NCBI GenBank assembly: GCA_001724265.1
Contig: MEDY01000055.1
Coordinates: 62,001 to 126,000, forward strand
Origin: Rhizaria sp. SCN 62-66
Taxonomy: Eukaryota
Direction of reading: 5' to 3'
Length of the DNA: 64,000 nucleotides
The position numbers were made by a program, and so were the translations under genes. Under the pieces are notes generated by a model. The model did no database searches and was not told the origin of the DNA. It was given only the letters and a program-made list of their open reading frames with translations. Shown in pieces: positions 2,646-41,162 of the stretch. Within the stretch, counting starts at the first letter, position 1; each line of letters starts with the position of its first letter.

Positions 2646-3290
2646 ATGTCGACGCCCTACGGCCCCGCGCACCTGCGCGCGCCGAGTGCACAGCCGGGCG
2701 ACCCGACATCTTCCTCCAACCAGCCTGACTCGCAGCCCTCCGGCCCCGCGCCGGTCCCATCGGTCCGCGCCTCGCTTTCCGGCGCCGCCGCCAGCCCCGG
2801 TGCACAGCCCCCGCTGCAGCGCGACCTCAGCGCGTCGCCCAACCCCACAGGTCCGCCGCCGGGCCAGAGCACGAGCCGCGCGCGCGGCCGCCGCGTCTCT
2901 TCGGGTGGCGCCGCGTTCCTGGGCTTCGCCGCCAGCGTGGGAGGCAACCCCGCCCCCGCGGCGGGCCCCGGCAGCGGCGGCCTCACCCACAGAGGCGGCG
3001 GCTCGGGCGAGTACCACATCGACCCCTCGGGCGCCTACCTGGGCCTGCCCGCGCTTGCGTATCCCGGCGCGGCGCCCTCGGTCTCCGCCGCGGGCCCCGC
3101 GGGGAGCTACTCGCCGCGCTCGCGGTCGCGGCCAGCGTCGCGCCAGTCGGGCTTTTTGCAGCATCACCAGCAGCAGATGCAGCAGATGCAGCAGATGCAG
3201 CAGATGCAGCAGCCATACCGCCACCCGACGCCGCCGAACACGTATAACTACGCTATGCACGCCGCCGCTGCCGCGAACAACACCAACGCT

Positions 3291-3321
<31 letters not shown>

Positions 3322-4938
3322 TGCATCAGCAGCAACAACAGCAGGCGCCTGCGTTTGCGCACATGATGTCCCTCGGCCTGGCCCCCGGCATGCCTCCGCA
3401 GCAGCAGACACTTGTCTCGCCCACGGGCGCCTTCTACTCGCTGCCCGTGGCCGGCCCCGCGCAGGGCATGGGCGCCCCGCGGCCGCGGTCGCCGTTCCGT
3501 GCCGCAGTCGCCGCCGTCGCCACCAGCAGCATGGGCGCTCACAACAACAATGCCGGCGGCACCGCGGCGGCCGGGACTGCGCAGTACACTGGCGACGCCG
3601 TAGTCTCGAACAGCACCAGCAACAGCAACACGGGCACGCCCCTGATCCACACGAGCACGTCTGCTGGCGCGACGCCGCTGACGATGGGACCCGCACCCGC
3701 GCCCGCCGTCACGATGACCGCCAGCACCACGACTTCGAACACACCGGCCCAGACCCCGGGCCCGCTCAGCGCGGCGATGGCGCTGCCCAACAACGACTCC
3801 AACAGCACCAACGCGAGCTCGCAGCTCAACACCGGCACCAGCGCCGGCGCAGGCTCTGCGGCGATGCACTTGAGTCCGTTCGCGAACCTGCACTGGGGAT
3901 CGCTGCAGCCGCACCCGCACCCGCCGTCGCGGACGGCCACGCCGCGCATCGCTAACGCCGGTGACGCCAGCAGTAGCTCCGGCACCGCGGCCAGCAGCAG
4001 CGGCGGAGGCGGTGGCGGCGGAGGCATGATGATGCAGTCGCCGCCGCCGCCCGCGCTGCTGCACATGATGTCCTACGGCGGCAACCCCCCGGCCGGGTAC
4101 GGCATGATGACGCCCCACGCGCACGGCCACGCGATGCAGATGGGCCACCCCATGGGCGGCGCACACGGTCACCAGATGATCCAGTCCCCCAGCATGTTCA
4201 CGCCCACGCACGCGGGCGCATTCGCGATGACGCACCTGTCGCCCGCGCCGAGCCACCACTACACGGCGTTCCAGCAGCACATGCACCAGCAGCAGATCCA
4301 GCCGGGCTCCGCCAGCGCGCCGCAGCAGACGCACGGGCTCGGCGCCGGCGCCGCGGACCACGCCGACGCGACGCCCGTGCTCAACACGCCGGGCTACACG
4401 CAGAACAACACGCCCGCCGTCGCGAACGGCAACGACGCAGTGCTGGTGGGCATGCCGCTGTCGTTCGCGCACAGCCACGCGCATAGCCAGGCCCACAGCC
4501 AGTCGCACTCCCAGTCGCAGTATCCTCAGCAGGGGCAGCAGTCGCACACGCTGCCTCACGGGAGCAGCGGCACGAGCGAGCTCCCCGGCTCGCACTCTGG
4601 CGACGCTCACAGCCAGCACCACGGCGGCGACGGCGACGCGCTGCCCGGCGAGCATGACACCGCTCGCACTGGCACCACCATGTCCGGCGTCACCGTCACG
4701 TCCTCGGTCTACACGCGCGTGCGCGCGCCCAGCGCCTTTGGTGGCAGCGGCGGCGCGGGCGGCGGCGGCAATGGCGGCAACGGCGGCGGCAGCGGCGGCG
4801 GCGGCGGTTTCGACTCCGTGTCGTCGCTGCCGGCCGGCGTGTCAATCCCCGCCCTGCAGCTGCCCGTCATGTCACCGACGCCGCCCGCGGGCACGGCGCT
4901 GGCCAAGTCCTTCTCGCAGCCGCCGCTGCAGCAGCAGT

Positions 4939-4981
<43 letters not shown>

Positions 4982-7900
4982 CGGCGGTGAAGGATACGGG
5001 ATGCACACCGGCGCGACGATCGGCGACCTGATGTTGCAGGTGCAGGGCGGCCCGTCGACGCTGGGCTCCCCCGGTCTCGAGTCGCTGCCTCAGCCCACGA
5101 CGGCGGTTTCCGGCTTCAACTCGGAGGGCTTCATGACGGCCACGCCATTCGAGCCGCTTACTGGCGCCGGCGTCTTCGGCAGCCCCTACGCCTTGAACCG
5201 TGGGCTCGGCTACGACAACGCGGCCCCCGGCGGTATGGGCTCGCCCGCCGTCGGCCAGGGCTCCTGGGTCGCTAAGTCCCCGCTCCCGGACCCCGTCGCC
5301 GCACTCACGTTGGGCGTCAAGGGCGCCCCGGCCGCGGCGAACCCATTCTCGCCCGTCGCCGCACCGGCCTCCGCGGGCGCGTCGCCGATGCCAGGGCTGG
5401 ACCGCAAGCAGACGCTCGGGGCCGCGCGCACCGGCGCCGACACCGCGCGCCTCGCGGCGCCCGTTACCACCACCGGCGCGGGCCGTCGCGGCCTGTACGG
5501 CCGCCGCCAGAACAACCTGCGTTGCGCCAAGATCCGACCCTTTCTCATCTGCAGCGAGTCAGCTTCTTGCGCTGCAGTCACGAAGTACGGCGCCAAAGAA
5601 CTCGAGCTCTCGCGTGCCGCCGCCCGCGCGCGCGCCTGTGCCATGTCGACGCTATACTCTGTTTTTATGGCGTTTGTGTTCATGGTTGACACAGTGCTGC
5701 TGGCGCTGGACCACCCGAAGTACAACCGGTTCGACTACTCGCCGCCCGTTTTCGGCATTGTCATGGTGTCCTACCTCTTTATTACGGTGGCGTACATCGC
5801 CGAGTTCGTCGTCAACATGCTCGCCTACAGCGGGCGCGCGGCCATCGGCGGCCGGCCCGGCGAGCGGCAGTCTGAGTTCTACGGCTCCTTCTTGGGCTGG
5901 TTCTGCGTCGCCGCGATCATCACGCTCATCGTCGACTGCGTGTGGCCGCTAAACACGCTGCGTTACCTGCCCGCGATCCGCATCGTGCGCTTCTTCCGCG
6001 TTTTCACGTACCTCTCCGCGGTGCGCTCGATCGCGATGATCTCGCAGGCCGTGTCTAAGTCCGTCGGCAGGCTTATCCCGCTCTTTATCGTGCTGCTGCT
6101 GCTCATTCTCGTCTTCGCGTCTAACTGGACTCTGGCTTACGACACCACGTTCACGCGCCGCTGTCTGCTCACTCCGGAGGGCATCGCGATCGCGAGCGAC
6201 TCCACGGACCCACGCTTCGATGCCATCCAGGTCCAGTTCGCGGTGGAGCAGGCGCAGCGGTGCGTGACGCGCGCGGGCCAGTGGTCCGTGGCGCCCGGCC
6301 GTCTGTGTCCGTAGTACTTCGAGTGCGTCAACGACGCGCCGTTGTCGAGCATCTACGACTCGTTCAGCAACGTACTGCTGTCGTCCGTGGTCGTGTTCCG
6401 CATCGTCGTCATTGAGTCGTGGAACTCCATCATGTACGACATGCAGGACATTTACAACTGGATTCCCGTCGTGCTTTGCATCGTGCTCATTTTCATCGGC
6501 AACTTTTTCCTGCTCAACTTCGTGGCCGCCGTCGTCGTGAACGAGTTCCAGAACCTCGTCGCCGAGCTCTACGTGCAGCAGGCGCGCTCCTCGCAGCGCG
6601 GCTTCGACGAGCTCCGCGAAGTCATCATCCAGATGCTATCCAGCGAAGGACTCTTCCGCGACTTCCCCGTGCTTGGCTCCACTGGCGTGCCCGTCATGCT
6701 GCACCAGTGCGCCACGGGCAAGGCGCTCGCGGGCTTCCTGCTCAAGTCGGAGATCTGCACGTCGCGCAAGGACGCCGTGCGCATGCTGCACCGCATGCTG
6801 TCGCTGCGCATTTTACACGAGGTCTCGGCCGCGGGTGTGGTGCAGCCCAGCGGCAGCGGCGGCATGTATGAGGTCAAGTTCTTCACCGATGCGACGCACT
6901 TTTACTCCTTCGAGGGTTCCGACGAGCCGGACGAGAACATGCCGCCCGCGCTGCAGCAGATCATCCGCTCCATCCTGCTGCCCATCAAGCAGCTCATTGC
7001 GGAGCTCGCTGCCAAGCGCGCCGCCGCCGTCGCTGCGGGCGCTGCGGGCGCGGCTGCCGCGGCCGCTGCGGCCGGCGGGCCCAACGCCGCGCTGATTGCG
7101 GCGCAGGCCGCACAGGCCGCCGCGGCTGCAAAGGCTGCGAATGCCGCCGCCAAGGCCGCCAAGGCCGCTGCTGACGCCGCGACCTCCGCCGTCGCCCCCG
7201 CCGACGCCGAGGCGACCGCGGCCGCCGCTGCCACAGCTGCAACCGCCGCCTCGGCCGCCGCGGCAGAGGCCGAAGCTGCTGTCGCCGGCACTGCTCCTGC
7301 CACTGCGATGACAACCGCGCACCCAACAGCCTCCGCGCCCACCGGCACCGGTGCTGGCCACGGCCACGGGCTCGGGCTCGGCCTCATGTCGCCCGCCGAG
7401 CTCACCGCCGCCGCCAGCGCCGCGGTCTCCTCAACCGGCGGCGCGAAGCCCGAGCTCGGCACCGGCGCGAACGGCGAGAGCACCGCGTACACGGTGCCGG
7501 GGCTGGCGCTGGGCGGGATCCCCGCGAACCTCGGCGTCGGGCTCGGCTCGGAGGGCCTTGTCCCCGCGCAGACCGACCACATGCACTTCGCGGGCGCGAT
7601 GCCCGGCTCGGGCGCTGCGGGTGGCGACGTGTCCAATGGACAGCAGCAGCTGGACCAGCAGCAGCAGCTGCTGCAGCAGGAGCTTGACGGCGGCGCCATG
7701 ACGCAGGCGCAGTTCGACGAGCAGTACCAACACTTCTACCAGCAGCATCTGCAGAACAACCTCCGCGCCGCGGGCTTCGATCCCGCGACCGCGGCCGCCG
7801 CCGCCGCCGCGGGCCCCGGCGGCGTCCCCGGCGTTGCCGGGGCGGACGGCGACGCTTCGAACTCGGCGGCTATGATGGCCATGACGCCGTTCGGCGCGTT

Positions 7901-10900
7901 CAGCAGCCCGCCCGCGCTGCAGGCCGCCGCGTCGGTCGGGCTCGGCAGTGTCCAGCGCCATCGCCACAGCCTCTCGCACGGCGGCTACCCGGGGCCCGCG
8001 TTCCACCATCCCGATCTCACCACGGCCTTCAACGCAGGCGCCGGCGCGGGCCAGCCGGGCGGGTACTACACCCCCGGCCACGGCAGCGGATCCTTCACGA
8101 CCCCGGTCAATGCGCTGGGGCAGCCGCTGTTCCTGACCGCCGCAGTGCCTGCGCAGCAGCCGCCGCCGTCGGCGCGCAGCCACCACGTCCCGGCCGCGCA
8201 CACCGGCGCGGAACAGTTCGGCGACGACGGCGACACGTTCCAGGGCCCCGGGGCTGGCCTCGGGGCCGCCACCCCGCGCGCGCACGGCGCAGCCACCCCG
8301 CGCGCGCACGGCGCAGCCACTCCGCGCCTAAGCTTTGTCACTGGCACCGGCTCCACGCTAGTGTCGGCGACGCCGCGCTACGGCCCCGGCGGCGTGCCGC
8401 AGACCCCGCGCGCGGGCATCATGACACCGCGCACGGGGGGCGGGACGCTGCCGCCGCAGACGCCGCGCGCTGGGGGCGGGGCGCTGCCGCCGCAGACGCC
8501 GCGCGCGGGGACTATGACGCCCCGCGCCGGCGCGATGACGCCGCGCGCGGGCGGAATGACTCCGCGCGCGTCCGGGATGCTGACGCGCGGCGAGACCTTT
8601 ACCACGCGCATCCTGCACCCTGCGCCGCTGTCGCTGGCGCAGTCCGCGCAGTCGCAGGCGCAGGCGCAGCAGCAGCCTTTGCAGGGCAGCACTGTGGAGG
8701 ACGAGCGCGCGCGCTTCTTCGCCGCACCACAGCCGAGTCCCCGCGCGTCGCAGCGCAGCCACGCCCACGACGATGGGCTGGATCCCGCTGCCGGCACGAG
8801 CGCTGACGCCACAGAGCCGATTCCTACGTTTCACCCCATGGGCTCACGCACTGTCGACGTCACGCGCACGCCGCGCGGCGCCATGCTGCATCAACAGCAG
8901 CAGCAGCAGCAGCAGCAGTTCGGTTTGGTGCCTATTACATTTAACGTTCCCGTCACGACCTCCGGCTCGGCGCCCATCGACGGCGCTACCGACCCGTCTC
9001 TGACCGCCGCGGTCGCCGTGGCCGCGGGCGCCACGGCCTCGGCCTCTGGCTCGGGCATGCCGTCTGCGCGCCGCCGCTCTAACAGCACGGCCCCGACGCC
9101 CGGCACCGCCCGCCGCCGCCTCTCCGGGCTGTCCGCCGACCCCGCCGCGCTCGCCGCCACCAACAACAACAGCACCGGCAGCGCCGGCGGCGGGAACCCC
9201 AGCGGAGGGTTCGTGCCGCCGCCCCTGGTGCACGGCGCGTCCGCACGCGGCGGGCTCGGCAGCGCGGGCGCCAGCGTGCGCAACCTCAACGGGCTGGTCG
9301 CCGGCCCCGCTGGCCCCGGGTTCGTGCCGCCGCCGCTGCTTGCGCAGGGCAGCCGGCTGGGCAGCATGACGCCGGGCCTACGCACTCCGGGCTACGGCCA
9401 GCCGCAGGTACCTCAGTCGCCGTCGCTGGGCGCGGGCGGATACATGCTGCCGCTGCACTCGGCCGCCGTGGCCGCCGCGGGCGCGTCGTTCGTGGCCGTG
9501 AGGGGCCCCAACGGCGTCGTGTTCGTGCCTAGCTACGGCCCACCGCAGGGCTATGAGCTCGCGGCGCAGATGAGCGCGGCGCAGATGGGCGCGGCGCGCG
9601 CGCATAGCACGACGCCGGGCGGCCTGTCGCGCAGCCTCGCGCAGGGCGGCAGCGGGCCTAACGGCACGCCGGGCGTGCCGGGCACGGGCCGCCGGTCCAT
9701 CGCGCTCTCTGGCGGGCCCACTGGCGGGGCGCCGGGCAACGCGGGCGCCGTGTTTGGGAGCAAGGCGCCTTCGCCCCACAGCGCACTGAGGCGCATGAAC
9801 AGCTTAGGCAACATGTACCACCAGAACTTGAACGATCCTATGGTGATGCAGCAGCAGCAGCAGCAGCAGCAGCAGTATCAGCAGTATCAGCAGCAACAGC
9901 AGTCGGCGATGCAGGGTGGTGACCGCAACCGTTTCTTTGCTCCGGCAGCAGATGCCCTCGACAATAGTATCTCGAGCAGCAATGGCAACGGACCGAATAA
10001 CAGCAACACAGGGAACCTTAGTCTTAACACTGGCGGCTCTGCCCATGTTGGTGTCACTAACAACAACAACCACAACAACCCAAGCAGCAACACCGACAAC
10101 GACTCTGTCTCGCACCACGGTTCTGAGCACCACAGCATCGCCCCCAGCAACGCCACGCTCGGCGGCACGAACACGCACGGCCCCGCAATCGACCGCACGG
10201 GCTCACTGCGCGTGCTCTCGCTCGCGCGCGGCTCCGTATCGACGCCGCGGCACAACTTTGCCCCCGCGCCGCACATGCCCAGTCCCGCGCTCGGTACGCC
10301 CCGCAATTTGGCTGCCGCGTCCGCCGCCGCTGCACCAGCCGCCCCGGCGGTGACTGCGAACAACGCGAGCAACGACACCGGTGCGGCGCGCAATCGGTCG
10401 CCGTCGAGCACGCTGTTCACGATCGCCAACTCCAACACCGCTTCGAACACCAACGCCAATGCGGGCGCGTCTCCGGTCAGCGGCTCGGGGGCTAACGCGC
10501 CCGAGCGCGGCTCGCTGCACAGCAGCCCCAACGCTATGCTGCGGCGTGTCAGCAACGCCTCGCCCACGCCGCCCTCGACGACGATCGCGGGCGCGCTGTC
10601 ACTCAACACGGCCGCGCCGCCTCTGGCCGCCTCGGGCGGGGCGACGCCCGCGACCGATAACTCGACCGCGACACCTCAGTCTCAGCAGCAGCAACAACAA
10701 CAGCAACAACAACAACAGCAGCAGCAGCAGCAACAGCAACAGCAGCTGAGTCTGTCGACCTCCGTCGAAGCGTCCGCGCCTGCGCCGACGCCGCAGTACT
10801 CGCCCGACGTCGCCGCGACGGACGAGGACGACGCCGTGCGGTACAACTTCACGCCCGGCGACGGCGACGGCGATGGACGCGGTGGCGACTCGTTCCAGGA

Positions 10901-13900
10901 CTCAGATGACAGCAGCACCTTCAGCGCGAGCGCCAGCTACACGTCCTCGCATTCGTCTTCGTCCTTCACTGCGATGAACGCCAACATGTCTCCCGCGGCT
11001 GCTGTCGCCGCCGCCGCGCTCGCCGCGCAACAGCTGTCAGGCGGCGCTGGCCCCGCGGCTGACAGTGTGCGCGCGCCGTCCCCCACCTCGCGCTCGCCCT
11101 CGGCCAACTCGGGCCCTGTGGTGCGGCTGCGCCCGCGCCCGCGCTCGCACAAGAGCTCGCGCCAGTCTGGCGCCTCGGCGGGCGGCAGCGCGGCGTCGCG
11201 CTCGCACTCGCACGCGGTGGCGCTCATGAGCATGTCGCCCGTGCCCGAGCAGCCCGAGTCGTCGGAGGACACGGCGCGCCGCCGCACCTCGCACCGGCCC
11301 AGTCGCCGCAGCGGGGCTTTCTCCACGAGCATGATGTTACCTGACGGCTCCGTGCTGGCGCCCGCGTCCTCGGCCCTCGCTGGTTCGAACAACGGCAGCA
11401 GTCATGACGCTGCGGGCGCGGGCGCCAACGCGCGCAGCACTTTCCCGCGCTCTGCGTTCGCGCCCGCCTCGCCGCAGCGCATGGTGGCGTCGCTGTCACC
11501 GTCGATGCAGCAGCAGCAGCGCTCGCTGCAGGATCATCAGCAGATGCAACAGCAGCAGCTGCTGCTGCAGCAGCAGTATCAGCAGCCGTACGCTCGCACT
11601 CCCATCGTGCCCTCGTCCGCTACTTCGTCAAGCTCCGCTGCATCTTCATCGTTCACAGTCACACAACAGCCGCAACAGCAGCCACAGGCCGACCAAGTGC
11701 CTGTGATCCCGCTGCCGGCCCGCATGGCGTCTCCGTCCCCGTACAACCCCGCCATGCCGCACGCCGGCGGCCCCATGTCGCCGCCCATGGCAGGCATCGC
11801 GCTGCCGCTGCCACCCTCGCGCATGCGCTTCGCATCTCCGGCGCCCGGCGCGCAGCCCTCGTCCACGGCCTCCGTGGCCGCGAGCGCGTCGTCGGCCTCA
11901 TCGGTCGCGGCCGGCGCCCCAGCTGTTGCGCCTACCGGCGCCGGCGGGGCGCCGATGTGGGGCTCCCCGCTCGCGGGCCCGACGGTCGGCGTGCGCACGC
12001 TCAGCGGCTCCCACAGCGGGCTCACCCCGCTCGCGCCGGCGCTTTTCTCCCCCGCGGGCCCCGGCGAGCGCGGCACACCCACGCTCTCCGCGGCCGGCGG
12101 TAGCTTCGTCGCCGGGTCGCCGCAGATGTCGGGCTCGTCCGTCTCGCGCATGACCCGCGGCGACAGCGGCAGCCTCAGCGTGGCCTCGATGACCTCCCCG
12201 CCCTCAGCGCCCGCCTCGGCGTCGGCCGCCACGCTCGCCGTCGGTAACATCGCCACCGTGGGCGCGGGCGTGCCGCAGCGCCTCGGCCTCCCGCACACCG
12301 TGGGGCCGTCGCTCGCGGGCGCGTCCCCGTTCACCAGCCCCGGCCCCGGCTCGGTCGCCGGCACGCTCTCATCCTCGGGCGGTACGGGGGTCGCGCACAG
12401 CCACGCGGGCTTCGCACTGCACCACGCCAGCGGCTCCAGCGGCGCGGCCGGCACGGCCACGCACTCGGGCGCCGTGCCGCACTCGGCGGGCTTCGCACCC
12501 GCGTCCGTGTCGATGGGCTCGCCGCCCGCGATGTTGAGTGTGCGCACCGACATGGGCGGCGCCATGTCCCCGCTGCCCATGCACAGCCAGGGCCACAACG
12601 CGGGCGCACTTGCCGGCGCCGGGAAGCCTAACGGACTCGTGTTCGGGCGTGGCAGCACCGGTGGCAATATGCTTTCGCACGCGCACTCTCAGGGTGACGT
12701 GTTCGCAGCCCCCGGTGCCCATTCTTCGTCCAGCCTGTCCGGCAACGGCACCAGCATTGCCGCCGGCACGCCCGCCACTGGCACGCTCCCCGCCGGCCGC
12801 GTTGGCGCCGGCGCGGCGGACAACGCGCGCGGCCGGCCCCGCAGCATCACGCGCGCGTCCCCCGGCCCCGCGGGCTCCGAAAACGGCGGCTCCCCGCTTG
12901 CGCCGGAGCTCCGCGTGCTCCCCGTGTACGCGGGCGAGTATGGCGGCCACGTCTTCCTCGGTATCGCGGCCGGCGCGCACCCGGCGCCCAAGTTGGCGTC
13001 CACCGCGGGCAACAGCGCCGCGAGGCGCGGGCACAACAGCACCGGCGACGGCGCCGCGGCCCCGCCCGTGGACGCCGCGGCCGACAACAGCCAGCGGCGC
13101 GCCGCCGCGGCCGCCGCAGCCGCACTGGTGAGCACGAGCGACGTCACCGCGCGCAGCCGCTCTAGCGCCACGGCCAACGGTGCCGCCGGCGGTGTTGGCG
13201 GCTTGCCGGCGGGCGCAGGCCCGGACTCGCCCAGCTCGACCTTCTCTGGCGGGTCCAAGCCGTCGGTGAGCGCGACCTCGGTGTCTGCGACCACGCTGTC
13301 GTCGTCCACCGGTACAATGTCGACCACAACCACCACCAACACAAGCTCTGCGACCGGTGTGGCCGCCGGGCGCGTGGCTGGCCCCGGCGGCGCGCAGATG
13401 TCCACCCACGCCAACGCTGCCAACGCTGCCAGCAGCACCGCGGCTGCGAGCGGCAGCGCGGGCGTCGGCGCACACCGACTCGTCTCCGCGTCGCCGTTCC
13501 GTCCGTCGCTGTCCCCCGTGCACACGACTGCGCCGCCGACCTCGCTGCAGTCCGCCAACGCCGGCCCCAGCTCCAGCGGCAGCGTGTCCGTCACCGGCCC
13601 TGGCGCGCAGGGCTCTCCGCTGGGCTTCGGCGCACACAACACATCGTCGTCGCGGTCTTCCTCGTCCTCGCCCGTGCCCAGCCCCACGCTGGCGATGCCG
13701 CCCGCCGCGGGCAACACCGCGCTCCCGCCCTCGGGCCTGCCCCCGCGCGGTTCTATCTCTGGCGCGCCACCGCTGTCTCTCGCTAGCAACAGCCAGGCCC
13801 CGCCCGCGCGCGGCAGCTTCTCTGGCGGCGCGCACCCGACCGCACTCAGCCCGGCGCCGCTCGTCGTATCAGTGATGCCTCCTCCGCCCGCGCAGTCTCA

Positions 13901-16900
13901 GTCGCAGTCTACAACATCGGCACAGGCGCAGGCGGCGCAGACTCAGCAGCCGCAGACGCCGGGCAGCGGCGCGCTGGCGTGGCCATCGCACCCCCCCGCG
14001 TCCCCTGCAGGCGCCCCGCGTGTGGTGCTAAATGATCTGGGCAAGCCGCCCATCTCGCCCGCGGTGCGCCCGCGCACATCCGTCAATGCGGCCGCCACTG
14101 GCGACACCGACGACACCGCCGGCGGCTCGCTAATCGCGCCGGTGTCGCCCGCGCTCGTCAGCTCCTCGATGCTCGGTGCGTCTTCTCCGGTTGCCACCGC
14201 GAGCGGCGGCGGATTCCCGACCGTGCAGACGCGCCCGGCGTCGTTCTCGGCCCCCGCGCCACCGCAGCCTCACTTCGGCAGCACCGGGCTCGCGCAGACG
14301 CCCGCCCGCGCTGGCGCCGGCGGGGCCGGCGGAACTTTCGGGCCCCCTGCGTCAAGCATCGGCGAGGACGACGGCGGCAGAGGCGTCGGCGTCGGTGTTG
14401 CCGCTCCGCGCGCTTATGAAGGCGACTCTCCTGTCGTTTTCAATGCCTCACAGCAGCTGCAGTCCGGTGCCATCTCACGCTCGTCCTCCGCGCAGTCCAA
14501 CGTGCGCTCGCTGGCCTCATCCTCGCCCGTCATCTCGAGCCGCACCAGCGTCAGCCGCGGCAGCAGCGTCAGTCGTCTGCTGTCGCCGAGCGCGCGCTAC
14601 TCGATCAACGTCAACGCGTCTGCGCAGCCCATGTCGCTGCCGCCGGGCGCTGCGGCGTTCATGGGCACCTCGACGCTCTCCGGTGCGACGACACCGGTGC
14701 AGGGACAGGGCCCGGCGGCGCACTTCAACCTCTCGCCCGCCGCAGCTGCCGCAGCCGCCGCTGCTGCTGATACGACGGCTGCTCTTACGCAGCAGAACAA
14801 CGGAAATGGCTTCAACATGCAGCGCGGGCCGCTGGCGCCCCCCGAGGCCCCGCCGTCGCCCGACCTCGAGCATGACCTTGAGCCTCACTTCCTCCCCTCT
14901 GACTGCGACGACGACGAGGGTGGAGACGAGGAGCTTGAGCGGATGCGCGCGATTGTGAACCCGCTGCGCCGCGGCTACTGCGCCAGTCGCGACAGCACCG
15001 GCCGGCGCCGCGGCAGCTACTCTGGCCCCGGCCCGCTACCGCCGCCGCCGCCGCCGCCTGTGCCGCTACCTCCTACTGGTGGCTTCACCAGCGGACCCAA
15101 CAGCACAACTGCGGCCACGGCCGCTGCAGCCGCTGCCGCGCATGCCGCAGCCGCCGCGCTCGCAGCCGCCGCGAGCGGCGCCGCGCCGGGCAACGAGTCG
15201 CCGCCGCCGCCCAACACAGCGCACACAGTGGCCAGCGATGCGACCGTGGCGACGGCGCTGACGGGCCTGACGGGCTTCTCAGGCTTCTCAGGCGGCGGGT
15301 CTGCCATCTCCGGCCCCGGCTTCGCGCCGGGCGCGGCTGGCGGCGGCGCGCAGTACGGCATGGGCGCGCCCTACACCACCACGCACGGCGGCGGCGCGGC
15401 GCCCGGCATGCCGTACTCGCCCTTTGCGCAGCGCCAGGCGAGCCCCAGCGGGTTCTTCCACAAGGGCAACGCGGCGAGCGCGACGCCCACGGCCGCCGTG
15501 GGGCTGCCGCCGCTGCCAGTGATCCTTACGCCGCAGCGCGCGGGGCTGCCGGCGTCGCACGCGCAGCAGCAGCTCACGCTCGCGCAGCAGCACCAGCAGC
15601 AGATGCAGGGCGTGAGCAGCTCGCTGAACAACACCGCTGTGGCGACGTCCAACACCACCACCACAAACACGAGCACGGGGTCCCCGGGGCTCGGCGACAG
15701 CAACAACACGACCTCCAGCTCCGGCGCCGTGACGCTCGCCGCGCAGCCCACGATGCACGCCGTGCACAACACCAGCGGCGCGCACAACGTCAGCCAGACG
15801 CACTCGCACCAGGAGATGTCATTCGACCGCGACGCGCGCGGCGGCGGCGGCGGCACCGTGGCCGTCGACGGCGGCTTCCGCGCCGCGTCGATGAGCGAGG
15901 ACGGCACGACGAGCGTCGGCATGCGTGCGCTCGAGGCCGCGCTGCTCAAGATCGACGCAGACAAGGCCTCCGCGATGGAGTTCGTGTTTGGCGAAGGCAC
16001 ACTGTCGCACGGCGTTTCGAGCGAAGTCGCCGAGGTGCTGCAAGACAACCGCGGCATGCAGCCCGGCCACGGCCTCCCCGTGCTCCCGCTGTACTACCCC
16101 GTCATGGTCGGCGAGGAGCCCGGGCTGCTGCTGGTCTACGCCGACGGCAGCTACGTGATCAAGTCCGTGCCGGGTTACGTGCACTCGGGCTTGACCAACA
16201 TTAAGGACCCGGCGCAGGAGGTCTCCAAGCAGCGCCTCGCCGCGCACCAGCAGAAGCAGACGATGGCGGACGATATGAGTTCCGGCCCGCTCTCCGGCGC
16301 GGGGTCCGGTGGTGCCCGCGACGGCGCCAACACCGGCCACTCTCGGCCTGGCGGTGACGGCCACACTGCGGGCGTCGCCGGCAAGCCGCCGCAGATGCTC
16401 CCGAGTGGCCCGCAGTTCACTCCGAGCGACGGCTTCGACTCGTTCCTGTCCGCGCGCTCTCTGCTCTCCGAGACTGAGGGCCTTGTGGCGCCGCAGTTCC
16501 AGGCCTACACTGACACGCTCGCCGACTACGCGACTCTCGTGCTCGGCCGCGAGAAGGGCGCGGGGCCCGCGCCGCCACAGCATCTGGTCGCGCACCGCCC
16601 CGCTTCGACCACGTCCTCGTCCTCGTCCTCGGCGACGGCGATGCGCCTGTCCTCCGGGCTCTCCCTCGGCGGCCCCGGCGCAAGCACGGCGGAGCGCATC
16701 GCGCTGGTCCAGGGCTCGTCGGGCGCACTCAGCATGGCGTCGGCGCCGAACGCCTGCCCGAGCCCGCCACTCCCTGTTGGCAGCGGCGCGCTGCCACACA
16801 TCTCCGTCGCTGGCGCCGTTAGCGGCGGGAACCTGCCTCCGCTAAGCAGTCACAACAAGCGGTGGAGTCACCACAGCAGCGACAACGGCAGCGCTGCGCA

Positions 16901-18370
16901 CACGTTTGCGAGCAGCTCGCTGCAGTACTCGACGCATGCGGTGCAGACTATGCCTGGCATGGGCTCCGAGTCTGGCGTTTCGGTCGATCACGAACACGAC
17001 GGACACAACACCAGCGGCAACGCTAACAGCAGCACGCACATGGGCGAGCAGCGCAACCTGCAGGCTGCTCGCGGTGACGCGCCGCCGCTCATGGTCACTT
17101 TGTCGACCAACAGCACGTCCGTCGCCACGCCCGCAGGCCAGCCCGGACCCACGGCCCCGTATTCCACCGATGCCGCCTCGGGCGCTGCTCCGACGGCAGG
17201 ATTTCCCAACCCTCGCCTCCAGGCCGCCGCGACGCGCAAGTCGCTGAACTCGACCATGACGGGCGCTTTCCCGTTCGTCAACACGAGTGCGGGTTATAAC
17301 GCTCCCGCAACTGGCCCCAGCTCCCCGATCAACGCGAACGAGGCGCTCCCACCCGCGGGCCGCGCGTCGTCGTCGTCCTCGAGCTCCGGCGTCAAAACAG
17401 GCACCGTCTCCGGCAGTGCAGGCGGCCGCGTTGGTGCGCGTGCGAGTGCGGGCGCCAAGACGCTTGTGGACGAGGACGGCAACCACTCGATCAACATTGA
17501 GATGGATAAGCAGCCGTCCGTGGTGACAAGCGAGCTCAACCACCCGTCGCTCGCGCACTCGCAGTCACTGTTCAACTACCACCCCGAAGCCATGGTGGCC
17601 AGCAACGTCGGCGCCACCGTCAGCAAGGGATCCCCCACTGGCATCGTGTATCACCGCGGCCAGCCCTCGTCGCGCACTGGCGCGCGCTCTTTCCCCGCCG
17701 GTGCCCCCGCGCCTCAATACGGCGGCGTGTCGCCCACGTCGCTCGCCGCGGCCTCAGGTGCGTCTGCGTTCAGCGCGGCCAGTGGCGGCGTGCAGCCGAC
17801 TGTGCAGCGCCTCCCTTCGCGCGCGCCCTCGAACACGGCCTCCGTTGCGGACTCTTCCACTGGCTCCGGCGGCACTGGCGCCGAGGTCGTCGTCAATGCG
17901 CGCATCGCGAACCTCGTGCACGCCGGCGCGGGGCCGCGCGGCAAGGTCGGGTTGCAGGCGTCGACGCCGGACCTGCTTTCGCTGCTGAGCTCTGTGGTCA
18001 ACCCCGCGGTCAAGATCGTCGACTCGACGGCCGCGGCGGAGTTGTGGCGCAAGCAGGTCACCTCGGTGCTCTCTTCGCCCGCCGCGACGCTCTCGGTGGC
18101 GAGCAGCAGCGGCGAGTCGCGCAGCACGCTCGCGTTCAACACCCCGTCGGTCGGGCCTATGCCGTCGTCGCACGGCGTCAACCCACAGCCGCAAGCCGGA
18201 CTATTGTCAAGCGTGCCCGCGACGCCGCCGGTGGCCCTGGCCGCCGCGCCCCTCTCGAGCGAAACCAGTGGCGACGTGACTCTGGGCTCGTCCGACCCCA
18301 CTGGTTCGAATAGTTCGCCTGCTGTTGCTCATGTTGAACCCACGCAGAGTGCGCAGGAGCCGCTACAGCA

Positions 18371-18407
<37 letters not shown>

Positions 18408-21400
18408 AAACAACAGCAACAACAGCAACAGCAACATCAGCAACAACAGCAGCCAGAGCAGGTCCATTTTGAGTCACCTCACTCTGAGCAGGATAAGCCC
18501 CACCCGTCTCATCCTCCTCTGCAGCAGCAGGGGACGTTGATTCCGTTGGCTTTACAGGAGAATGCAGCTCCTCCTCTCATCACCATCACTGGTCCTTCGC
18601 TCGCTCCCGGCGTCGCGGTGACTCACGTGCTGAACCACGCTCAGCCCGAGGCCGCTAGCGCTGTCGCCGGCGTCGCTTCGCAGCCCACAACCGCGATGTC
18701 TCCTGTGTTGGGCCTCGCCGCTGTGGCCGCATCGCCGCCGGTCTCCGGCCGCCCCGACGCCGAGCCCGCGACGGTGGACGGCGTGCGCGGCGCCATCGCG
18801 GCGCTGCGCGTCGGCATCCCGCAGCGGGACACGCCCATGCTCAGCTCGGCTAGCGGCACGACCACTACCAACACCAGCCATGGCCCCGGCTCTGGCCCTG
18901 GGACCAACAGTAATACGAACACGGGCTCTGGCGCTGGAATCAGCACTACCACCACTGGAAATAGCTCCCTCGTGAGCAATGGCACTGCGGCCTTCGCGGG
19001 CGCGCCGCTCGCACTGGCTCTCGCGCGCTCCGGCGGCCAGGGCACGACCGACGCCAGCGAGCCCGACGCCACCAGCCCCGTCAGCGGCAACGACTTCGGC
19101 GGATCGCCCCTTGCAAACTCGGGCTCCGGCTCCGGTGAGGGCGACAACACGGCGAACCGCAACGCAACTGCTGCGGCTGCGGCCAATGCGGCGCTGCTGG
19201 TGAAGCGTGGCAGCGCGTCGCCGTCGTCCTTCATCAACCCAGGCACCGGCGCTGCGCTTGCGCTGAGCAGCAGCGGCAGCGGCGGCGTTAGCGCCGTCCG
19301 CTCCCCTATCTCCGGGCTGCTGGTGCGCACAGGCAGCAACACGTCCGGCACGTCGTCGCTCGCGCATACATTCTCCGCCGGCCCGCCCCCGCTCTCGCGC
19401 GAGGACTCCGGCTCGATCGTGTTCGGTGCCGGCTTCCGCAACCCGGGCGACGCGTACTCACCGATGTCGACCATCATGTCTGAGGCCAACTACGCCACCG
19501 ACACGGGCTCCATGTACGGCGGCGTCTCCCGCACTGTCGCGCCTAGCATCATCGGCATGGCCAGTGGCGGCGTAGGTGGCGCTAGCGCGTTTGCCAACGT
19601 CATGGAGGAAGGTGAAGAGGACGACGATGATTCCCAGAGCAAGTCGAACAAGTCGTCCCTCGTCTCCGCCGCGGCCGCCACCGACAGTAGTGACGGCAGC
19701 GCCGTCGGCGCGGTGGTGGGTGCGAACAACGCGCGCCACGGCACTGCCGACGGTCAGGTCGGCGCCGGCGCACTGATGAGCGTGATGGAGGAGGACGAAG
19801 TCGCCAGCTCTGCGGCCAACACACACGCATCCGCTGCGGGCCCGGGCACAGGCGCAACGCCAGTTTTCGCCACGGCGTCCGACAACACCGCTGGCCGCGG
19901 TAGAGTCACCGCCTCCTCCGTCGCCCAAGCCGCGGGCAGTGCTACGATGTCGTCGTCGGCCGTGCACACGGCGATCAATCCCCCCTCGCGGCAGTCCCCG
20001 CCGGGTGACCTCGACCGGCTCACGTCTAAGTCTCCCGTAGCAGTGTTCGGCGGCCTCAAAGCGCACAGTCTCGCGCCGGCCAAGCTTGATCTCCCTGTGT
20101 CCCCCGGCCTCACGCCGCGCCTTGTGTCCGACGGCGTTGCCGCTGCCCCGGGCGCTTCCGGCGCCGGTCTGACCACTGCTGCAATCATCGCGAACGCGCA
20201 GCAGAGCTTGGCGAACGCGGACCCCACGCCCGCAGGGACCAGGGGGCGCCGCGTCGCCATCATGGACGTCGACGCCAACGCGGCGGCCGCTGCGGCGGCA
20301 ACTGCGCTGCACGCGGCCGGCAACACAAGCAGTGTCACGGTGCCGAAGCTTGCTCTCGCGCAAGTTCCCGGTGTCGCCGGTGCGGCCGGCGCTGCGGCTG
20401 CTGCGGGCCGTGCGCCGGGTCCCGCTCTTCAGGCCGGTGCCGCGGGCGCCCCGCCGCTGCCGGCCGCGGCCGCGGTGCGCGTGCCGCCTCCAACGTTGAT
20501 GCAGGGCACGCCTCAGTGGCAGAACTACTGCTGCGCATTCCCCGTCGCCTCGCTGTTCCGGCTTGTGTCTAAGGAGCTGTTCGAGTGGGTTAGTGCGTTG
20601 TTTGTGATCATGTACTGCACGTGCATCTCGCTGTACTCTTACAATCAGTCCGAGGACATGACCTTTGTCATCTCGTGCATCATCGACGCGTGCACCGGTG
20701 TGTTCATGCTCGAGATCATGATCCGTCTGCTCGCCCTCCCGCGCCGCTCGCGCACATACCCCGTCGTCATCGCACTGGCCATCCTCAAGATTCACGTCGA
20801 CACCAACACTCTGCCACTGCTGCTGTCAGACTCAACCGCCTCGCGCCGCAAAGGGCGCTCGGCTCTGGCCCAGGCCGGCGGCGAGCAGGGTGACGCCGCT
20901 CGCAAGCGCCGCAACTCGATTGTCGGTATCTCCGGTGTGCACTCGAACGGCTCACAGCTGTATCAGATGAACGTCGGTCGCGATGGCTTCGACGACAGCG
21001 AGGACGAGCGCGACGACCACGACGACGACGCTGATTACAACGAGCATGACCCCGTGCGCAAGTCGCCCAAGTCTCGTACGAGCAAGAACAACGCACACAA
21101 CACGAGCACGAGCGCCAATGCTGCTGGTACTGACGCTCAGGCCGGGGACGCGAATGAGTTCGGCGACAGTGAGCTGCCGCGTCTGCCCGTGGTCCCGCCT
21201 CCTCGCCGCGCCAGGCGCAGTCCCCTGATCGACATCAACATCCGCCACTTTAGCGCGGACGATAATCACATGGGTCTGCACGTGACTTCTTTCTGGGAGT
21301 CGCCGATGTGCATCATCGACCTCATCCACGTGTGTCTCGGCATCGCGCAGATCATCGGTGTGCTGGTCGAGGGCAAGTATCCGTACAACCCCACGTCGCC

Positions 21401-24400
21401 CGAGAACGCGATCACGATCACCAACGGCGCACCGTGGCTCACGATCCTGTCGTTCCTGCGTCTGATCAAGCTGATCCGCCTTGCCGCCGTGCTGTACCTC
21501 ATCCCTGCGCTGCGCCCATTGCTGTCCGTTATCTCGCGTTCGCTGGCCAACGTGCTCCGCATCACGGGACTCATCTTCGTGTTCGTATTCATGTTCGCGC
21601 TGTTCGGCAACCTCTGCTTTGGCGGCGACCACATCCCTGAGGACGTGGTGTTCACGTTCAACTCGTTCTGGTTTTCGCTCGCGTCGACGCTGTTCATTCT
21701 CTTCCCCGATAATTGGGTTGACTGGAGCAGCGAAGTTGCGCAGTACACCACGGTGCTTTTCATTCTCTTCCCGATCGTGTTCTTCCTTCTCGTCTTCCTC
21801 ATTCTGAACCAATTCACGCTCGTGATGGTAATCGAGAACTTCCGTGTCACCTTTACCAACCGCCGCCGCCAGTACCTGATCTGGTCCCCGCGCGACGCGG
21901 CCACAGTCGCTGCCGTCACCGCCGCCAAGGTCACTCCTGCGAACATCCCCGACCCGTCCCGTGGCGTTGTCGCCCCAGCCCCGGCTCTCGCGCTCACCGT
22001 GCCGGGCGCAGTCGGCCCAATCGGCATGCAGCCCGGCCTCCCGCCCTTCGGCTTCTTCCCCGGCGGGCCCGGTGCGCCCGGCGCTGGCGGGCTGGCTCTT
22101 GTGCCCGGCCCCGACGGCTACCCGCAGTACGTCGACGCCGTCACCGGACTGCCCTACGGCGCCGCACCTGGACTCGGTATGCCACTCGGCATGGGCATGG
22201 GCATGGGCATGGGCATGGCGGGCTACCCCGGTGCTTACGGCGCTGGCGCAATGGGTATCCCCATGGGCTACCCGCAGCCGTACCCTGGCGTTGACCCTGC
22301 GGTGATGGCGCCAATGGGCTACCCGCCCGGCGCCGTACCCGTGGACCCCTACACGGGCCAGCCGCAATACACGCCCCCGTTTGGCGCCGTCATGGTGCCC
22401 GGACCCGGCGGCGTGCCCATGATGGTCCCCGGCATGATGCCGCCCCCCGCGCTCGTGCCCAACGCCGCTGCGGCGTACCCCGGCGCCGCCGGTGACGCTG
22501 GCGTTGACGGGTACGACTTCGACGACGAGGAGTACTACGATGACGAGGACATTGACGACTTGGACGGCGAGGACCGCGACTCGGACGACGGATTCGAGCG
22601 CACCCCGATCAATGAAGTTGACGACAACGGTGACCCCGTCCCTGGCGCTGATCAGCAGCACCAGCAACTCGTGCCGCTGAACCCCGACGGCACGCAGCGC
22701 CCGCGGCGCCGTCGCCGCTCCCGCGCGCTGCCGTCTTATAACGCCGACCCTGCTGCGCTCGCAGCCGCCGCAGCCGCTGGGGAAGGCGACATGAACGCCA
22801 TGGCACCCGGCGCCATTGGCACGTGGCCGCAGATGCAGATGCAGATGCAGATGCCGATGTATCAGATGGTCATGGGTCCCAACGGCCCCGTACCCGTGGC
22901 GATGCCGATGGACCCCGCCGCGTACGGCGCGTACCCCGGCCAGTTCCCGCCCGGAGCGGTCCCCGCGATGGGTCCCTATGGCGCGATGATGCCGTGGGGC
23001 GCCGCAGCGTACCCCGGCATGGTCGGCGCGATGGATCCGTACGCCATGGGCATGATGGGCATGAATCCCGCCATGAACATGAACATGGGCTTCGGCATGG
23101 GCTACAACCCCTACAACGCTGGCTACGACAACTACGAAGACGCGTTTGACCACGACCAAGAGGAGGACCACGCCCACACCGAGCTCTCCGGCCTTGATCC
23201 TGGGCACCACGCCGCATATGCGCAGCAGTACGGCCGCGGCAGCGCCGGACACCCGGGGGCCGGCGCGGACACGTTCCGCTCCGAGATGTCCTCGCTGTAC
23301 CACCCGGGCGGCTTCTTCGGCATGGGCCGCGGCGGGCGCTACAACGCGCTCGAGTCGGTCCGCGGCCGCCCTAGCGACAACATGCTCACCGTCGCCAGCC
23401 CCGACAACGCGTACGCCGGCGCGAGCGGCGCGCAGGGCGGCTACGGCCACACATGGGCCGCCTTCGAGAGCGGCGACGTGACGCCTGAGTTCAGCGCAGC
23501 GTCCCCCAGCCAACCGCAGCCGCTGTCGCGCTCCCCGCTAGCGCCGCCCGTGCCGCCGCCCGACGCGGTGCTGAGCACTACGACCACGCCGCTGAATCAG
23601 CGCGGCAACAACTCGAGTTCCTCTGGGAGCAGCATGGCGCGGTCGGCAACCGGGCATCTCATCGCTGTGCCCGGTGGCGCGACCCTGCCGGCGCCCGGGA
23701 GCGGCGGCAACAACAGTAGCGGCGGCCCTTCGTGGCGCACGGTCGACAGCTCTCTGATTGCGACACCGCAGACAGTGGACACGGTTCATCCACCGATGCG
23801 CACCTACTACCAGGGCATTTCCCCGCTCGGTTCCGGTGATCGAGCGAGCATTTCGCTTGGTCCCAACACGATGGGCGGTGCTGAACAAGCGCAGAGCATT
23901 GAGGACACACTCGGTGGACGGCCGAACTCGACGCTTGACCCGACGAAGATGTTGCAGTCGCTGCGTTCTGAGCCTCCGGTCGAGGCACGCCCGATGCCGC
24001 AGATTCTTTCGGTCTGGTCGCGTGACAATTCGGTGCGCACATTCACGCCCACTAATGCAGCACTTCCGGGCTCGCACCAGAAGACCTACGACCCAACTCA
24101 CTCGCGCCGCAATTCCGCTCACTCCGCTCTTTCACATGCGCATGATGAGCACGAGCAGGTGCAACACAATGGTGACGACGAAAATGACTACGAGCGCCTC
24201 AAGAGCATGATGCCGCCTCTGCCGAGCATGGGCGCCGCGCCCGCACCTACGGTCACGATGAACTCGTCTGCCATGGCCGCCGCCAGCTCTGGCGTCGGCT
24301 TTAACAGCGCTGGTCGCCCCGTCCGCACCGCCAGTAGCGACGGCGGCGACAATGGTGCCCATGTAACGCAAGCGCATGTGGCTGCCTCTACGGTCAGTGA

Positions 24401-40190: not shown

Positions 40191-41162
40191 GCTAGTGTGA
40201 GCGGCAGCAAGCTTCGGTTTGCTTTTCGGCCGCAGACCGCTCGGTCAAATCGTGTTGGTGCTCGTCCTTCCTCGCAGATGTATGTCATGTTCTTCGAGGC
40301 ACTCTTCCCCGAGTGTCTCACCACTTTATCTTTTATTATTGATGATGATGTCAACAAGTTGTGCGTAGACACATGTAGTAGACATGCACGTCATATCTAG
40401 CATGATATCAATCTAGCATGATTGATGTTTTGCAAACATGTGTTCTATGACACGCATACTTGTGTGACTTGCTGTATGAGATGTTTTCACTGCCATAAGG
40501 ATCTTTTTGGGACTCGCGGCGTGTAACACTCTCAAAACCATATCTTTAGTTTGCATTTTGTTATTTTTCTCCTTGACAACATCTAATTAAAACCGCAGAT
40601 GTTGAACACTCTCTGTAATATCATGATTTATTGTCTCTACGACTGGAGACCTTGTACTTGAACATGTGTGTTTTGCTTTAATACTCGTGCTATATCTGTC
40701 AATATGACAATAATTTAATAAATTAGTATCATTATCTTCCACCCCACGCTCTCGCCGTAAAATGAAATCCACAGCTGCTTGTTAAAACGAATTTGAAGTG
40801 GAGTGTAACATCTGACTCGGCTTAAGAGCTTGCTGCGTTTTTGTGGTCGAGACAAGGGGTCGGTCGGTCTCTGCTTCCGGTGAAGTTAGGCCGCGGCTGT
40901 CGGTCAGTCGCTGAGCCGGGCGCAATGGAGTTCGCAAAACATCGAGTTTCTCATATTCGTATCATTCCGTTGCGATCTCTTTCGTGATTACATGTAGTAT
41001 CCACTTGGACAATGTATTATTTAATTTAGTACTGCATCTTGTGGTCATTAATGCAGTCAATATGCAAGTATGCGGGCACGGCGAAACCGGTCAACGTTCA
41101 GACACTCACCTCCTTTGCTTTACCAATTCAACCACACTATTCATGCGCTCCGTAGACACAAA

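Follow-up and report, generated by a model that had tools for sequence, protein, structure and literature searches.

A DEP domain stands at the start of the linker between domains I and II (I-II linker) of a four-domain, probably Ca2+-selective channel encoded by an uncultured wastewater eukaryote. The gene lies in the window, as the whole analyzed stretch of 64,000 nucleotides is called here. The first-pass annotation had placed a DEP-like domain at 6630..6915, and this is borne out by matches to the Pfam family PF00610, by a family profile, by the ESM Atlas and by structure comparison, which confirm that positions 6630..6917 encode a genuine DEP (winged-helix) domain. The DEP domain thereby joins the accessory domains of four-domain channels, and its presence suggests that in protists the voltage-gated entry of Ca2+ is directly linked to DEP-type signaling (receptors, G-protein regulators, lipids). 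A separate lineage with a self-contained signaling domain at the spot that follows IS6 would also amount to a natural experiment on the control of the domain I gate.

The channel is encoded by an open reading frame (ORF) of 12,514 codons at 2646..40190, on the forward strand like all features given here, which is broken by one in-frame TAG and closes with TAA. The third-position GC content (GC3) of this frame is 0.77-0.90 in each 1.5-kb block, and both alternative frames carry stops in almost all of these blocks. Pfam and a map of hydrophobic segments reveal four tandem six-transmembrane Ion_trans repeats in one polypeptide: domain I (S1-S6) at 5652..6551, with Ion_trans matches on either side of the TAG; domain II at 20568..21845, with an insert of ~190 amino acids between S2 and S3; and domains III and IV at 25128..27080 (Ion_trans E 1.4e-59). 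As read from the sequence, the selectivity filter is E/D/D/D, formed by the acidic residues of IESW, PDNW, FDEW, and ADLW, each two residues before the conserved Trp of its P-loop. The PDB matches of the channel include Cav, Nav, and NALCN, and the best solved relative of domains III-IV is Cav1.2 (E 8.1e-37). The repeats, the filter, and the Cav1.2 match agree with the four-domain channel recognized earlier, and the channel is Cav-like and, going by the filter, probably Ca2+-selective. It resembles the alpha-1 subunits of animal Cav1 and Cav2 in its four domains and acidic filter. Unlike them, it shows no GPHH or IQ family over the whole frame in Pfam at E up to 0.01, and its linkers and tail amount to thousands of low-complexity residues.

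The DEP domain comprises helix 1, a beta-hairpin, helices 2 and 3, and C-terminal strands ending in KFFTDATHFYSFEG. The comparison with PF00610 that had been proposed as a check returned a match for the 120-residue segment encoded at 6600-6960 (E 1.4e-5), though its 25.4 bits lie below the gathering cut-off of 32.7 bits, a curation threshold and no property of the fold. The match pairs profile positions 15-72 of 72 with 6702-6911 of the window, and helix 1 lies just upstream of it, from ~6606/6630. A profile built from four sequences of the family matched DEPTOR (E 7e-10), P-Rex1 (2.7e-5), and pleckstrin-2 (0.019) in the PDB, and the DEPTOR match may be mostly due to one relative, P0074. In the ESM Atlas, 27 of the 30 nearest clusters fall within the DEP family set, with a top score of 0.95. 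A single-sequence phmmer search of the PDB gave no significant match to DEP proteins (DEPTOR E 0.1, pleckstrin-2 E 0.46); its best match, miniGq (E 0.0016), was rejected as an artefact, the aligned part being a Gly/Ser-rich, linker-like stretch.

The structure prediction proposed for this segment likewise gave a winged helix. The AlphaFold model, based on a five-row alignment (mean pLDDT 69.9), contains helices at model residues 2-33, 59-68, and 75-87 and strands at 39-44, 50-58, 91-93, and 108-111, and thus shows the helix 1, protruding hairpin, helices 2 and 3, and small C-terminal sheet of the DEP fold. The core has a pLDDT of 71-91 (blocks 1-9 of the model), the C-terminal strands are poorly predicted (below 50 at residues 99-105 and 115-131), and the fold obtained from the single sequence was too poor to be used (48.4). 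DEP entries were the best matches of the model in both structure searches: rows 1-21 listed by Foldseek and rows 1-30 of VIA-align (Z 10.6-7.0) all contain DEP domains. The best VIA-align matches are P-Rex1 (Z 10.6), Dvl2 (Z 10.3, rmsd 1.8 over 81 residues), and DEPTOR (Z 10.3), and generic winged-helix proteins reach a Z of 6.9 at most. In fold and profile, the domain is related to the DEPs of DEPTOR, P-Rex1, Dishevelled-2, Epac2, pleckstrin, RGS7/9, DEPDC5, and LYCHOS/GPR155, from which it differs in being slightly acidic and in sharing just 10-22% identity with known DEPs in structural alignments. None of these host proteins is a voltage-gated channel, and one of them, LYCHOS, is likewise a polytopic membrane protein with a fused DEP.

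The pore-S6-DEP layout is shared by the window channel and four environmental relatives, the locus L001 and the fragments P0035, P0074, and P0094, which together form a small, deeply branching channel clade. L001 is by far the nearest of them (467.9 bits versus at most 186 for the others) and is paired with the window channel at 100 on a long, separate branch of a FastTree tree. It is an intact protein of 3,779 amino acids with four Ion_trans repeats, an E/D/D/D filter, and only a trace of GPHH at its C-terminus (E 0.07), and it makes the role of the DEP testable. In P0074, the DEP that follows pore and S6 scores 40.8 bits against PF00610, above the cut-off of 32.7. The signal is faint in P0094 (E 0.02, 15.3 bits) and L001 (E 0.14, 12.6 bits), and P0035 has no match at E up to 1. 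The alignment places long inserts after DEP helix 3 in P0094, P0035, and L001, and these inserts, together with the faint or absent Pfam signal, suggest that the canonical DEP surfaces may not be conserved.

A DEP domain is also found by Pfam in the linker between domains II and III of three further channels, P0049 (42.1 bits), P0060 (28.5), and P0031 (20.6), of which P0060 is UniRef100_A0A485K877, a hypothetical protein of the oomycete Aphanomyces stellatus. Like the window channel, they have four Ion_trans repeats and a single DEP placed in a cytoplasmic linker. They differ in that their I-II linker holds EF-hand pairs, while the DEP sits in the II-III linker, away from the IS6 extension, between IIS6 and IIIS1 and more than 100 residues from either. 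They are not the nearest relatives of the window channel, occupying ranks 45 (P0049), 111 (P0060), and 132 (P0031) of 146 by score and apparently grouping apart from it in the FastTree tree. Neither the scores nor the tree support descent of the two kinds of DEP channel, I-II and II-III, from one ancestor. The novel architecture claimed in the first-pass annotation has to be narrowed accordingly: the combination of Ion_trans and DEP is found outside the window gene too, while its placement after IS6 stands as rare, being found among the sequences examined only in the window channel and its four environmental relatives. A search of representative sequences gave 878 matches at E up to 0.001, mostly to the pore-S6 part, and the best 150 of the 878 were examined. 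Word-index searches, covering proteins of 76-2000 amino acids, returned only P0003 and three known relatives. A metagenome scan yielded 32 loci with a related S6, and L001 alone matched the post-S6 profile; the other 31 are weakly informative, since many are short contigs, may contain introns, or matched through the S6 of another domain. Sequence scores point to no one lineage: the named channels that come closest belong to Andalucia, Fabomonas, Apiculatamorpha, Diphylleia, Lacrimia, a pedinophyte, and Telonema, which are unrelated groups.

The C-terminal end of IS6 reads VVVNEFQ, and the Ion_trans match (profile positions 168-237 of 241) ends with it, at ~6551-6560. A helical extension at 6552..6629 (EFQ..VAELY..QA....G..E...) leads from there into the DEP domain. 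Its residues F2, Q3, Y10, A14, and E23 are invariant in all five sequences, and this connecting segment is the best-conserved non-membrane part in the clade. AlphaFold predicts a single helix over model residues 2-33 (block pLDDT 73-86). The DEP had been described as following IS6 "immediately"; the order is right, but the two are not adjacent, with ~27 residues, predicted as one continuous helix, lying between them.

In animal Cav1 and Cav2 channels, the beta subunit sits on a short helix after IS6 and sets trafficking and gating, its effects being passed on by the rigid helix that runs from IS6 to the beta-subunit site (AID). The IS6 end of the window channel aligns with residue 339 of Cav1.1 and residue 410 of Cav1.2, in which we take the AID to be residues 357-374 and 428-445, respectively. 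On this numbering, the AID-equivalent stretch falls at 6606..6659 (DELREVIIQMLSSEGLFR) and coincides with DEP helix 1, so that the earlier proposal of a DEP at the site of beta-subunit regulation holds as far as the distance from IS6 is concerned. As in Cav1 and Cav2, a regulatory element would thus be placed on the helix that continues IS6, ~18 residues past its aligned end. Unlike in those channels, a whole folded DEP takes the place of the AID-like motif: no AID motif was found when 6606-6659 was read against the consensus as we take it to be.

The reading favored here, tentatively and at a probability a little short of even, is that the DEP in the I-II linker is a built-in docking or regulatory module coupled to the domain I gate. 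It builds on the apparent continuity of the helix, which in the model would join the IS6 gate to DEP helix 1. A partner bound to the DEP would then have a mechanical connection to the domain I gate, and the whole could work as a partner-docking lever, a putative functional analogue, and not a homologue, of the lever formed by AID and beta subunit in animal Cav1 and Cav2. A partner protein, or some other region of the channel itself, would be the most likely ligand, ahead of bulk acidic lipid. The net charge is -3 for the window DEP (+3 for its helix 3) and -3 to 0 for the DEP domains of the clade, which lends no support to the binding of acidic lipids through bulk charge, and the clade alignment has no conserved basic residue at the tip of the DEP hairpin.

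A DEP that serves solely as a targeting or scaffolding tag, with no direct effect on gating, is an unlikely alternative, yet one that deserves serious weight. Such a tag would direct the channel to one subdomain of the membrane, for instance a flagellum, or tie it to a component of a receptor or G-protein pathway. Solved DEP complexes dock proteins onto membrane partners, and the Fzd4/DEP complex, GPR158-RGS7, and LYCHOS are among the structural matches of the window domain. Docking that does not depend on position would also suit the II-III linker DEPs, which lie well away from every S6 gate. However, a tag would have no need for a connecting segment that is the most conserved of its kind in the clade and is predicted as a helix continuous with S6.

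A broader evolutionary claim built on that module is doubtful: a clade of protist voltage-gated Ca2+ channels would have swapped the beta subunit and AID for a DEP covalently attached to the IS6 helix, with the DEP captured at least two times, in the I-II and the II-III linker. If this is true, the I-II capture would be the one seen here and the II-III capture that of the oomycete-type channels, and whatever the DEP binds, for instance the tail of a receptor, a protein of a G-protein pathway, or a lipid, would act on the channel gate as a direct lever. The result would be a recurrent, so far undescribed wiring of receptor signaling to excitability in microbial eukaryotes.

The in-frame TAG, at 6312..6314, falls in domain I, within its conserved turret motif CP-x-[YF]FEC, upstream of the DEP, and full-length protein may therefore not be made from this copy of the gene. 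The position is occupied by Q in P0035 and by M in L001, whose coding sequence is uninterrupted, and the TAG is found with identical letters in a run X4 contig, which stems from an independent study. An intron is rejected as the explanation, since the sole in-phase GT..AG option, of 27 nt, would delete the conserved CP of the motif; the one intron found in the window is AT-rich and ~146 nt long. It is conceivable, but improbable, that the window gene is a recent pseudogene or a nonsense allele, in which the DEP would be idle whatever its role in the relatives. Besides the recurrence of this single TAG in the X4 contig, the rarity of the codon speaks for such a loss: in four long ORFs, TAG occurs once in 17,641 in-frame codons, versus 781 Gln codons, and does not have the appearance of a general sense codon. 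A reading of TAG as Gln throughout finds no support, both on this count and because the other two frames that it would lengthen gain only sequence of non-coding appearance. Against a loss of function, another 11,282 codons follow the TAG without a stop, at a GC3 of 0.77-0.90, which leaves room for very recent decay at most. From a polyA-RNA library, one contig agrees with 5750-6311 at every letter, although DNA carry-over in the library is possible. In addition, TAG terminates none of the seven ORF ends examined, so it may be read through or carry a meaning of its own in this lineage.

The weakest account, that the resemblance to DEP is due to chance or to a generic winged helix, is very improbable and largely refuted: it can draw on the PF00610 score below the cut-off, the non-significant phmmer search, and the MukE, ArsR, and MarR winged-helix proteins in the structure lists, but it is opposed by four independent DEP-specific lines (the Pfam match of P0074, the family profile, the ESM Atlas, and VIA-align) and by a ranking in which the generic winged helices, at Z 6.9 and lower, come only after 30 ranks of DEP entries.

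No description of a four-domain channel with its DEP just behind IS6 came up in the literature searches, and none of a DEP domain in combination with four-domain voltage-gated channels, with the I-II linker, or with an oomycete calcium channel. For DEP domains and voltage-gated calcium channels, the titles among the matches listed concern DEPDC5, RGS7, or mTOR, and among the matches listed for DEP, Ion_trans, and PF00610 the titles are off-topic. DEP goes unmentioned in the portion consulted of a 2018 survey of four-domain channels (PMC5824947).

The rest of the channel ORF is dominated by low-complexity sequence, and A, G, S, P, Q, T, and N make up 64% of all its residues. The remainder of the I-II linker (6918..20567, ~4,550 codons) is nearly all of this kind, with one small island of ordinary composition at 15981-16193. 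No Pfam family reaches its cut-off there, and a 24-bit match to TFIIA was discarded as a low-complexity hit. The C-terminal tail (27081..40187, ~4,370 codons) begins after IVS6 with a stretch that reads as EF-hand-like (27081-27188), separated by low-complexity sequence from a second island of ordinary composition at 28842-29474. Read by eye, the tail appears to resemble a Cav C-terminal domain.

The domain that follows IS6 of the four-domain, Cav-like channel (window 6630-6917) can be assigned with very high confidence to the DEP family, as the first-pass annotation had proposed, and this reading is borne out by Pfam, the ESM Atlas, a family profile run against the PDB, AlphaFold, Foldseek, and VIA-align. 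For the 120-aa segment 6600-6960, the match to Pfam PF00610 reaches E 1.4e-5 and 25.4 bits and covers profile positions 15-72 of 72; it is significant but lower than the curated cut-off of 32.7 bits. Among the nearest 30 ESM Atlas clusters, 27 belong to the DEP family set, with a top score of 0.95. Single-sequence phmmer against the PDB retrieves DEP proteins without significance (DEPTOR E 0.1, pleckstrin-2 E 0.46), and its top match, miniGq, is an artefact in which a Gly/Ser linker is aligned.

An exhaustive HMMER search with the pore, S6, and DEP as query returns 878 matches at E up to 0.001. Nearly all of the best 150 of these cover the pore-S6 part alone, and the match runs on past S6 in three environmental protein fragments: P0074, where Ion_trans (pore-S6) is followed in Pfam by a DEP match that passes the cut-off (40.8 bits); P0094 (Pfam DEP E 0.02); and P0035, in which Pfam DEP is absent at E up to 1. 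A metagenome scan adds the locus L001, an uninterrupted ORF of 3,779 aa that carries four Ion_trans repeats, with a DEP arrangement like that of the window (Pfam DEP signal E 0.14). The profile built from the window and the three fragments recognizes solved DEP domains, DEPTOR at 7e-10 and P-Rex1 at 2.7e-5, with weaker matches to pleckstrin-2 (0.019) and Epac2 (0.13); much of this signal may be carried by P0074.

The predicted fold points in the same direction. From the single sequence the AlphaFold model is poor (pLDDT 48.4), with an element order that is already DEP-like. The five-row alignment of the window and its four relatives gives a mean pLDDT of 69.9 and a pTM of 0.59, with blocks 1-9 at 71-91 and a weak C-terminal part. 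This model consists of a helix (2-33), a hairpin (39-58), two helices (59-68 and 75-87), and two strands (91-93 and 108-111). Among the Foldseek matches listed against the PDB, the first 21 rows are all DEP-containing entries, including DEPTOR (E 8e-4), Epac2, pleckstrin, RGS7, P-Rex1, and Dvl2/Fzd4. VIA-align ranks 1-30 are likewise DEP entries, among them P-Rex1 (Z 10.6), Dvl2 (Z 10.3, rmsd 1.8 over 81 residues), DEPTOR (Z 10.3), LYCHOS, and DEPDC5, and generic winged-helix proteins begin at Z 6.9.

IS6 ends with ...VVVNEFQ at window 6551. Of the cytoplasmic stretches, the ~27 residues past it (EFQNLVAELYVQQARSSQRGF...) are the most strongly conserved across the five sequences (F2, Q3, Y10, A14, and E23 are invariant), and the AlphaFold model runs them into DEP helix 1 as a single predicted helix. 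The IS6 end aligns with Cav1.1 at residue 339 and with Cav1.2 at residue 410. The AID, the beta-subunit-binding helix of animal Cav1/Cav2, we take to span residues 357-374 and 428-445 of these channels, respectively, which puts the AID equivalent at window 6606-6659, where DEP helix 1 lies. On these AID numbers, the earlier claim that the DEP domain occupies the AID position holds.

In animal Cav1/Cav2, the AID-beta complex relays binding to the gate of domain I. A folded DEP domain whose helical connection to IS6 is conserved, unbroken, and apparently rigid could likewise pass binding events to this gate. The main rival is that the domain serves purely for targeting or scaffolding, which fits the placement of DEP domains in the II-III linker of other four-domain channels. 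As for what a gate-coupled DEP domain might contact, the window domain has a net charge of -3 (clade range -3 to 0), helix 3 is its sole basic helix (+3), and conserved basic residues are missing from the hairpin tip. A slightly acidic domain with such a tip favours a putative protein partner or intramolecular contact over bulk acidic-lipid binding.

A DEP domain right after IS6 is found in the window and four environmental sequences (L001, P0035, P0074, and P0094). Of the channels compared, L001 stands much the closest to the window: it scores 467.9 bits over DIII-DIV vs at most 186 for the others, and a FastTree tree (119 rows) joins the two at 100 on a long stem, a pairing that carries a long-branch warning. 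The nearest named channels come from scattered groups, so similarity assigns no lineage. In P0049 (42.1 bits), P0060 (28.5 bits), and P0031 (20.6 bits), the family profile and Pfam also find a DEP domain, there between IIS6 and IIIS1; the I-II linker of the last two contains EF-hand pairs, and P0060 is listed in one source under the oomycete Aphanomyces stellatus as a hypothetical protein. These II-III channels rank 45, 111, and 132 of 146 in similarity to the window and are placed apart from it in the tree; judging from these sequences, the two groups likely captured the domain independently. Altogether, DEP domains occur in six of the best 150 of 878 representatives, three per position. The novelty first attached to the architecture therefore stands for the site right after IS6, shared with four relatives, and was overstated as uniqueness, since II-III DEP channels exist.

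The literature searched, including that on calcium channels, oomycetes, and the I-II linker, yielded no account of a four-domain channel that contains a DEP domain, nor of the oomycete-type II-III channels. Among the matches listed for DEP domains and voltage-gated calcium channels, titles concern DEPDC5, RGS7, and mTOR. Passages of a 2018 survey of four-domain channels recognize six oomycete clades and discuss filters and S4 segments, and the DEP domain is absent from them (PMC5824947). Passages of another study describe oomycete GPCR-kinase fusions with DEP domains and set ion channels aside (PMC5784254).

The channel reading frame (2646-40190, forward strand) comprises 12,514 codons with one internal stop and a TAA end. 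Its third-position G+C is 0.77-0.90 in each 1.5-kb block, the other two frames both contain stops in nearly all blocks, and composition drops sharply past 40190, so the whole frame looks coding. Pfam finds Ion_trans repeats, and the hydrophobic-segment map and sequence give four 6-TM domains: DI at 5652-6551, DII at 20568-21845, and DIII and DIV at 25128-27080, all on the forward strand. The filter, read two residues before the Trp of each P-loop, is E/D/D/D. For DIII-DIV, the best solved relative is Cav1.2 (E 8.1e-37), ahead of Cav2.3, Cav1.1, Cav3, and Nav, with NALCN last.

The channel part is about one-tenth of the protein; A/G/S/P/Q/T/N make up 64% of residues. The I-II linker is ~4,670 residues long, and ~4,370 form the C-terminal tail. 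L001, in contrast, has ordinary composition (52% G+C, 45% A/G/S/P/Q/T/N) and an I-II linker of ~490 residues, so gigantism is specific to the window's lineage. Read through in full, the frame would encode an ion-channel polypeptide of 12,514 residues that contains poly-Q, poly-A, and MTPR-type repeats. Inside folded DII, ~190 aa of low-complexity sequence separate IIS2 from IIS3 (roughly 20760-21340); a second such insert, of ~550 aa, splits the post-IVS6 EF-hand-like region (27189-28841). Amid the low-complexity I-II linker, a 71-residue island of ordinary composition (15981-16193, FVFGEGTLSHGVSSEVAEVLQDNRG...) has no Pfam match.

The sole internal stop is a TAG at 6312-6314. It falls in the conserved, Cys-rich CP-x-[YF]FEC turret motif, at a position that relatives fill with Q or M. 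A contig of run X4, from an independent study, shows this TAG too, and the frame stays fully coding-like for 11,282 codons beyond it. An intron is rejected, the one clear intron of the window being AT-rich and ~146 nt long. TAG as a general sense codon is unlikely: it is one of 17,641 in-frame codons, and reading it as Q lengthens other frames by non-coding-looking sequence alone. On the other hand, TAG ends none of seven ORFs examined in the window (five TAA, two TGA). The TAG may instead be a recent nonsense allele, be passed by readthrough, or be altered at the RNA level. A contig from the polyA metatranscriptome run X5 covers 5750-6311 without differences and ends one base short of the TAG, a hint at most, as it comes from one study at a depth of ~3.4 and its end point may be coincidence.

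The intron (~1342-1487), GT..AG with a long T run, interrupts a protein-kinase gene, with ...GTRGFRAPEVLMRESA before it and TVGLDTWSAG... after it; the motif presumably resembles that of Cdc7-type kinases. Spliceosomal introns thus occur in this organism; none was seen in the 37.5-kb channel frame. Downstream are two long low-complexity ORFs without a Pfam family (48150-58616, ~3,490 aa; 58885-62580, 1,231 aa), an RRM protein with two RRM_1 domains (41070-42284), and a protein of 1,189 aa whose C-terminus holds a Sad1/UNC (SUN) domain (43077-46646). Genes are far less AT-rich than intergenic DNA.
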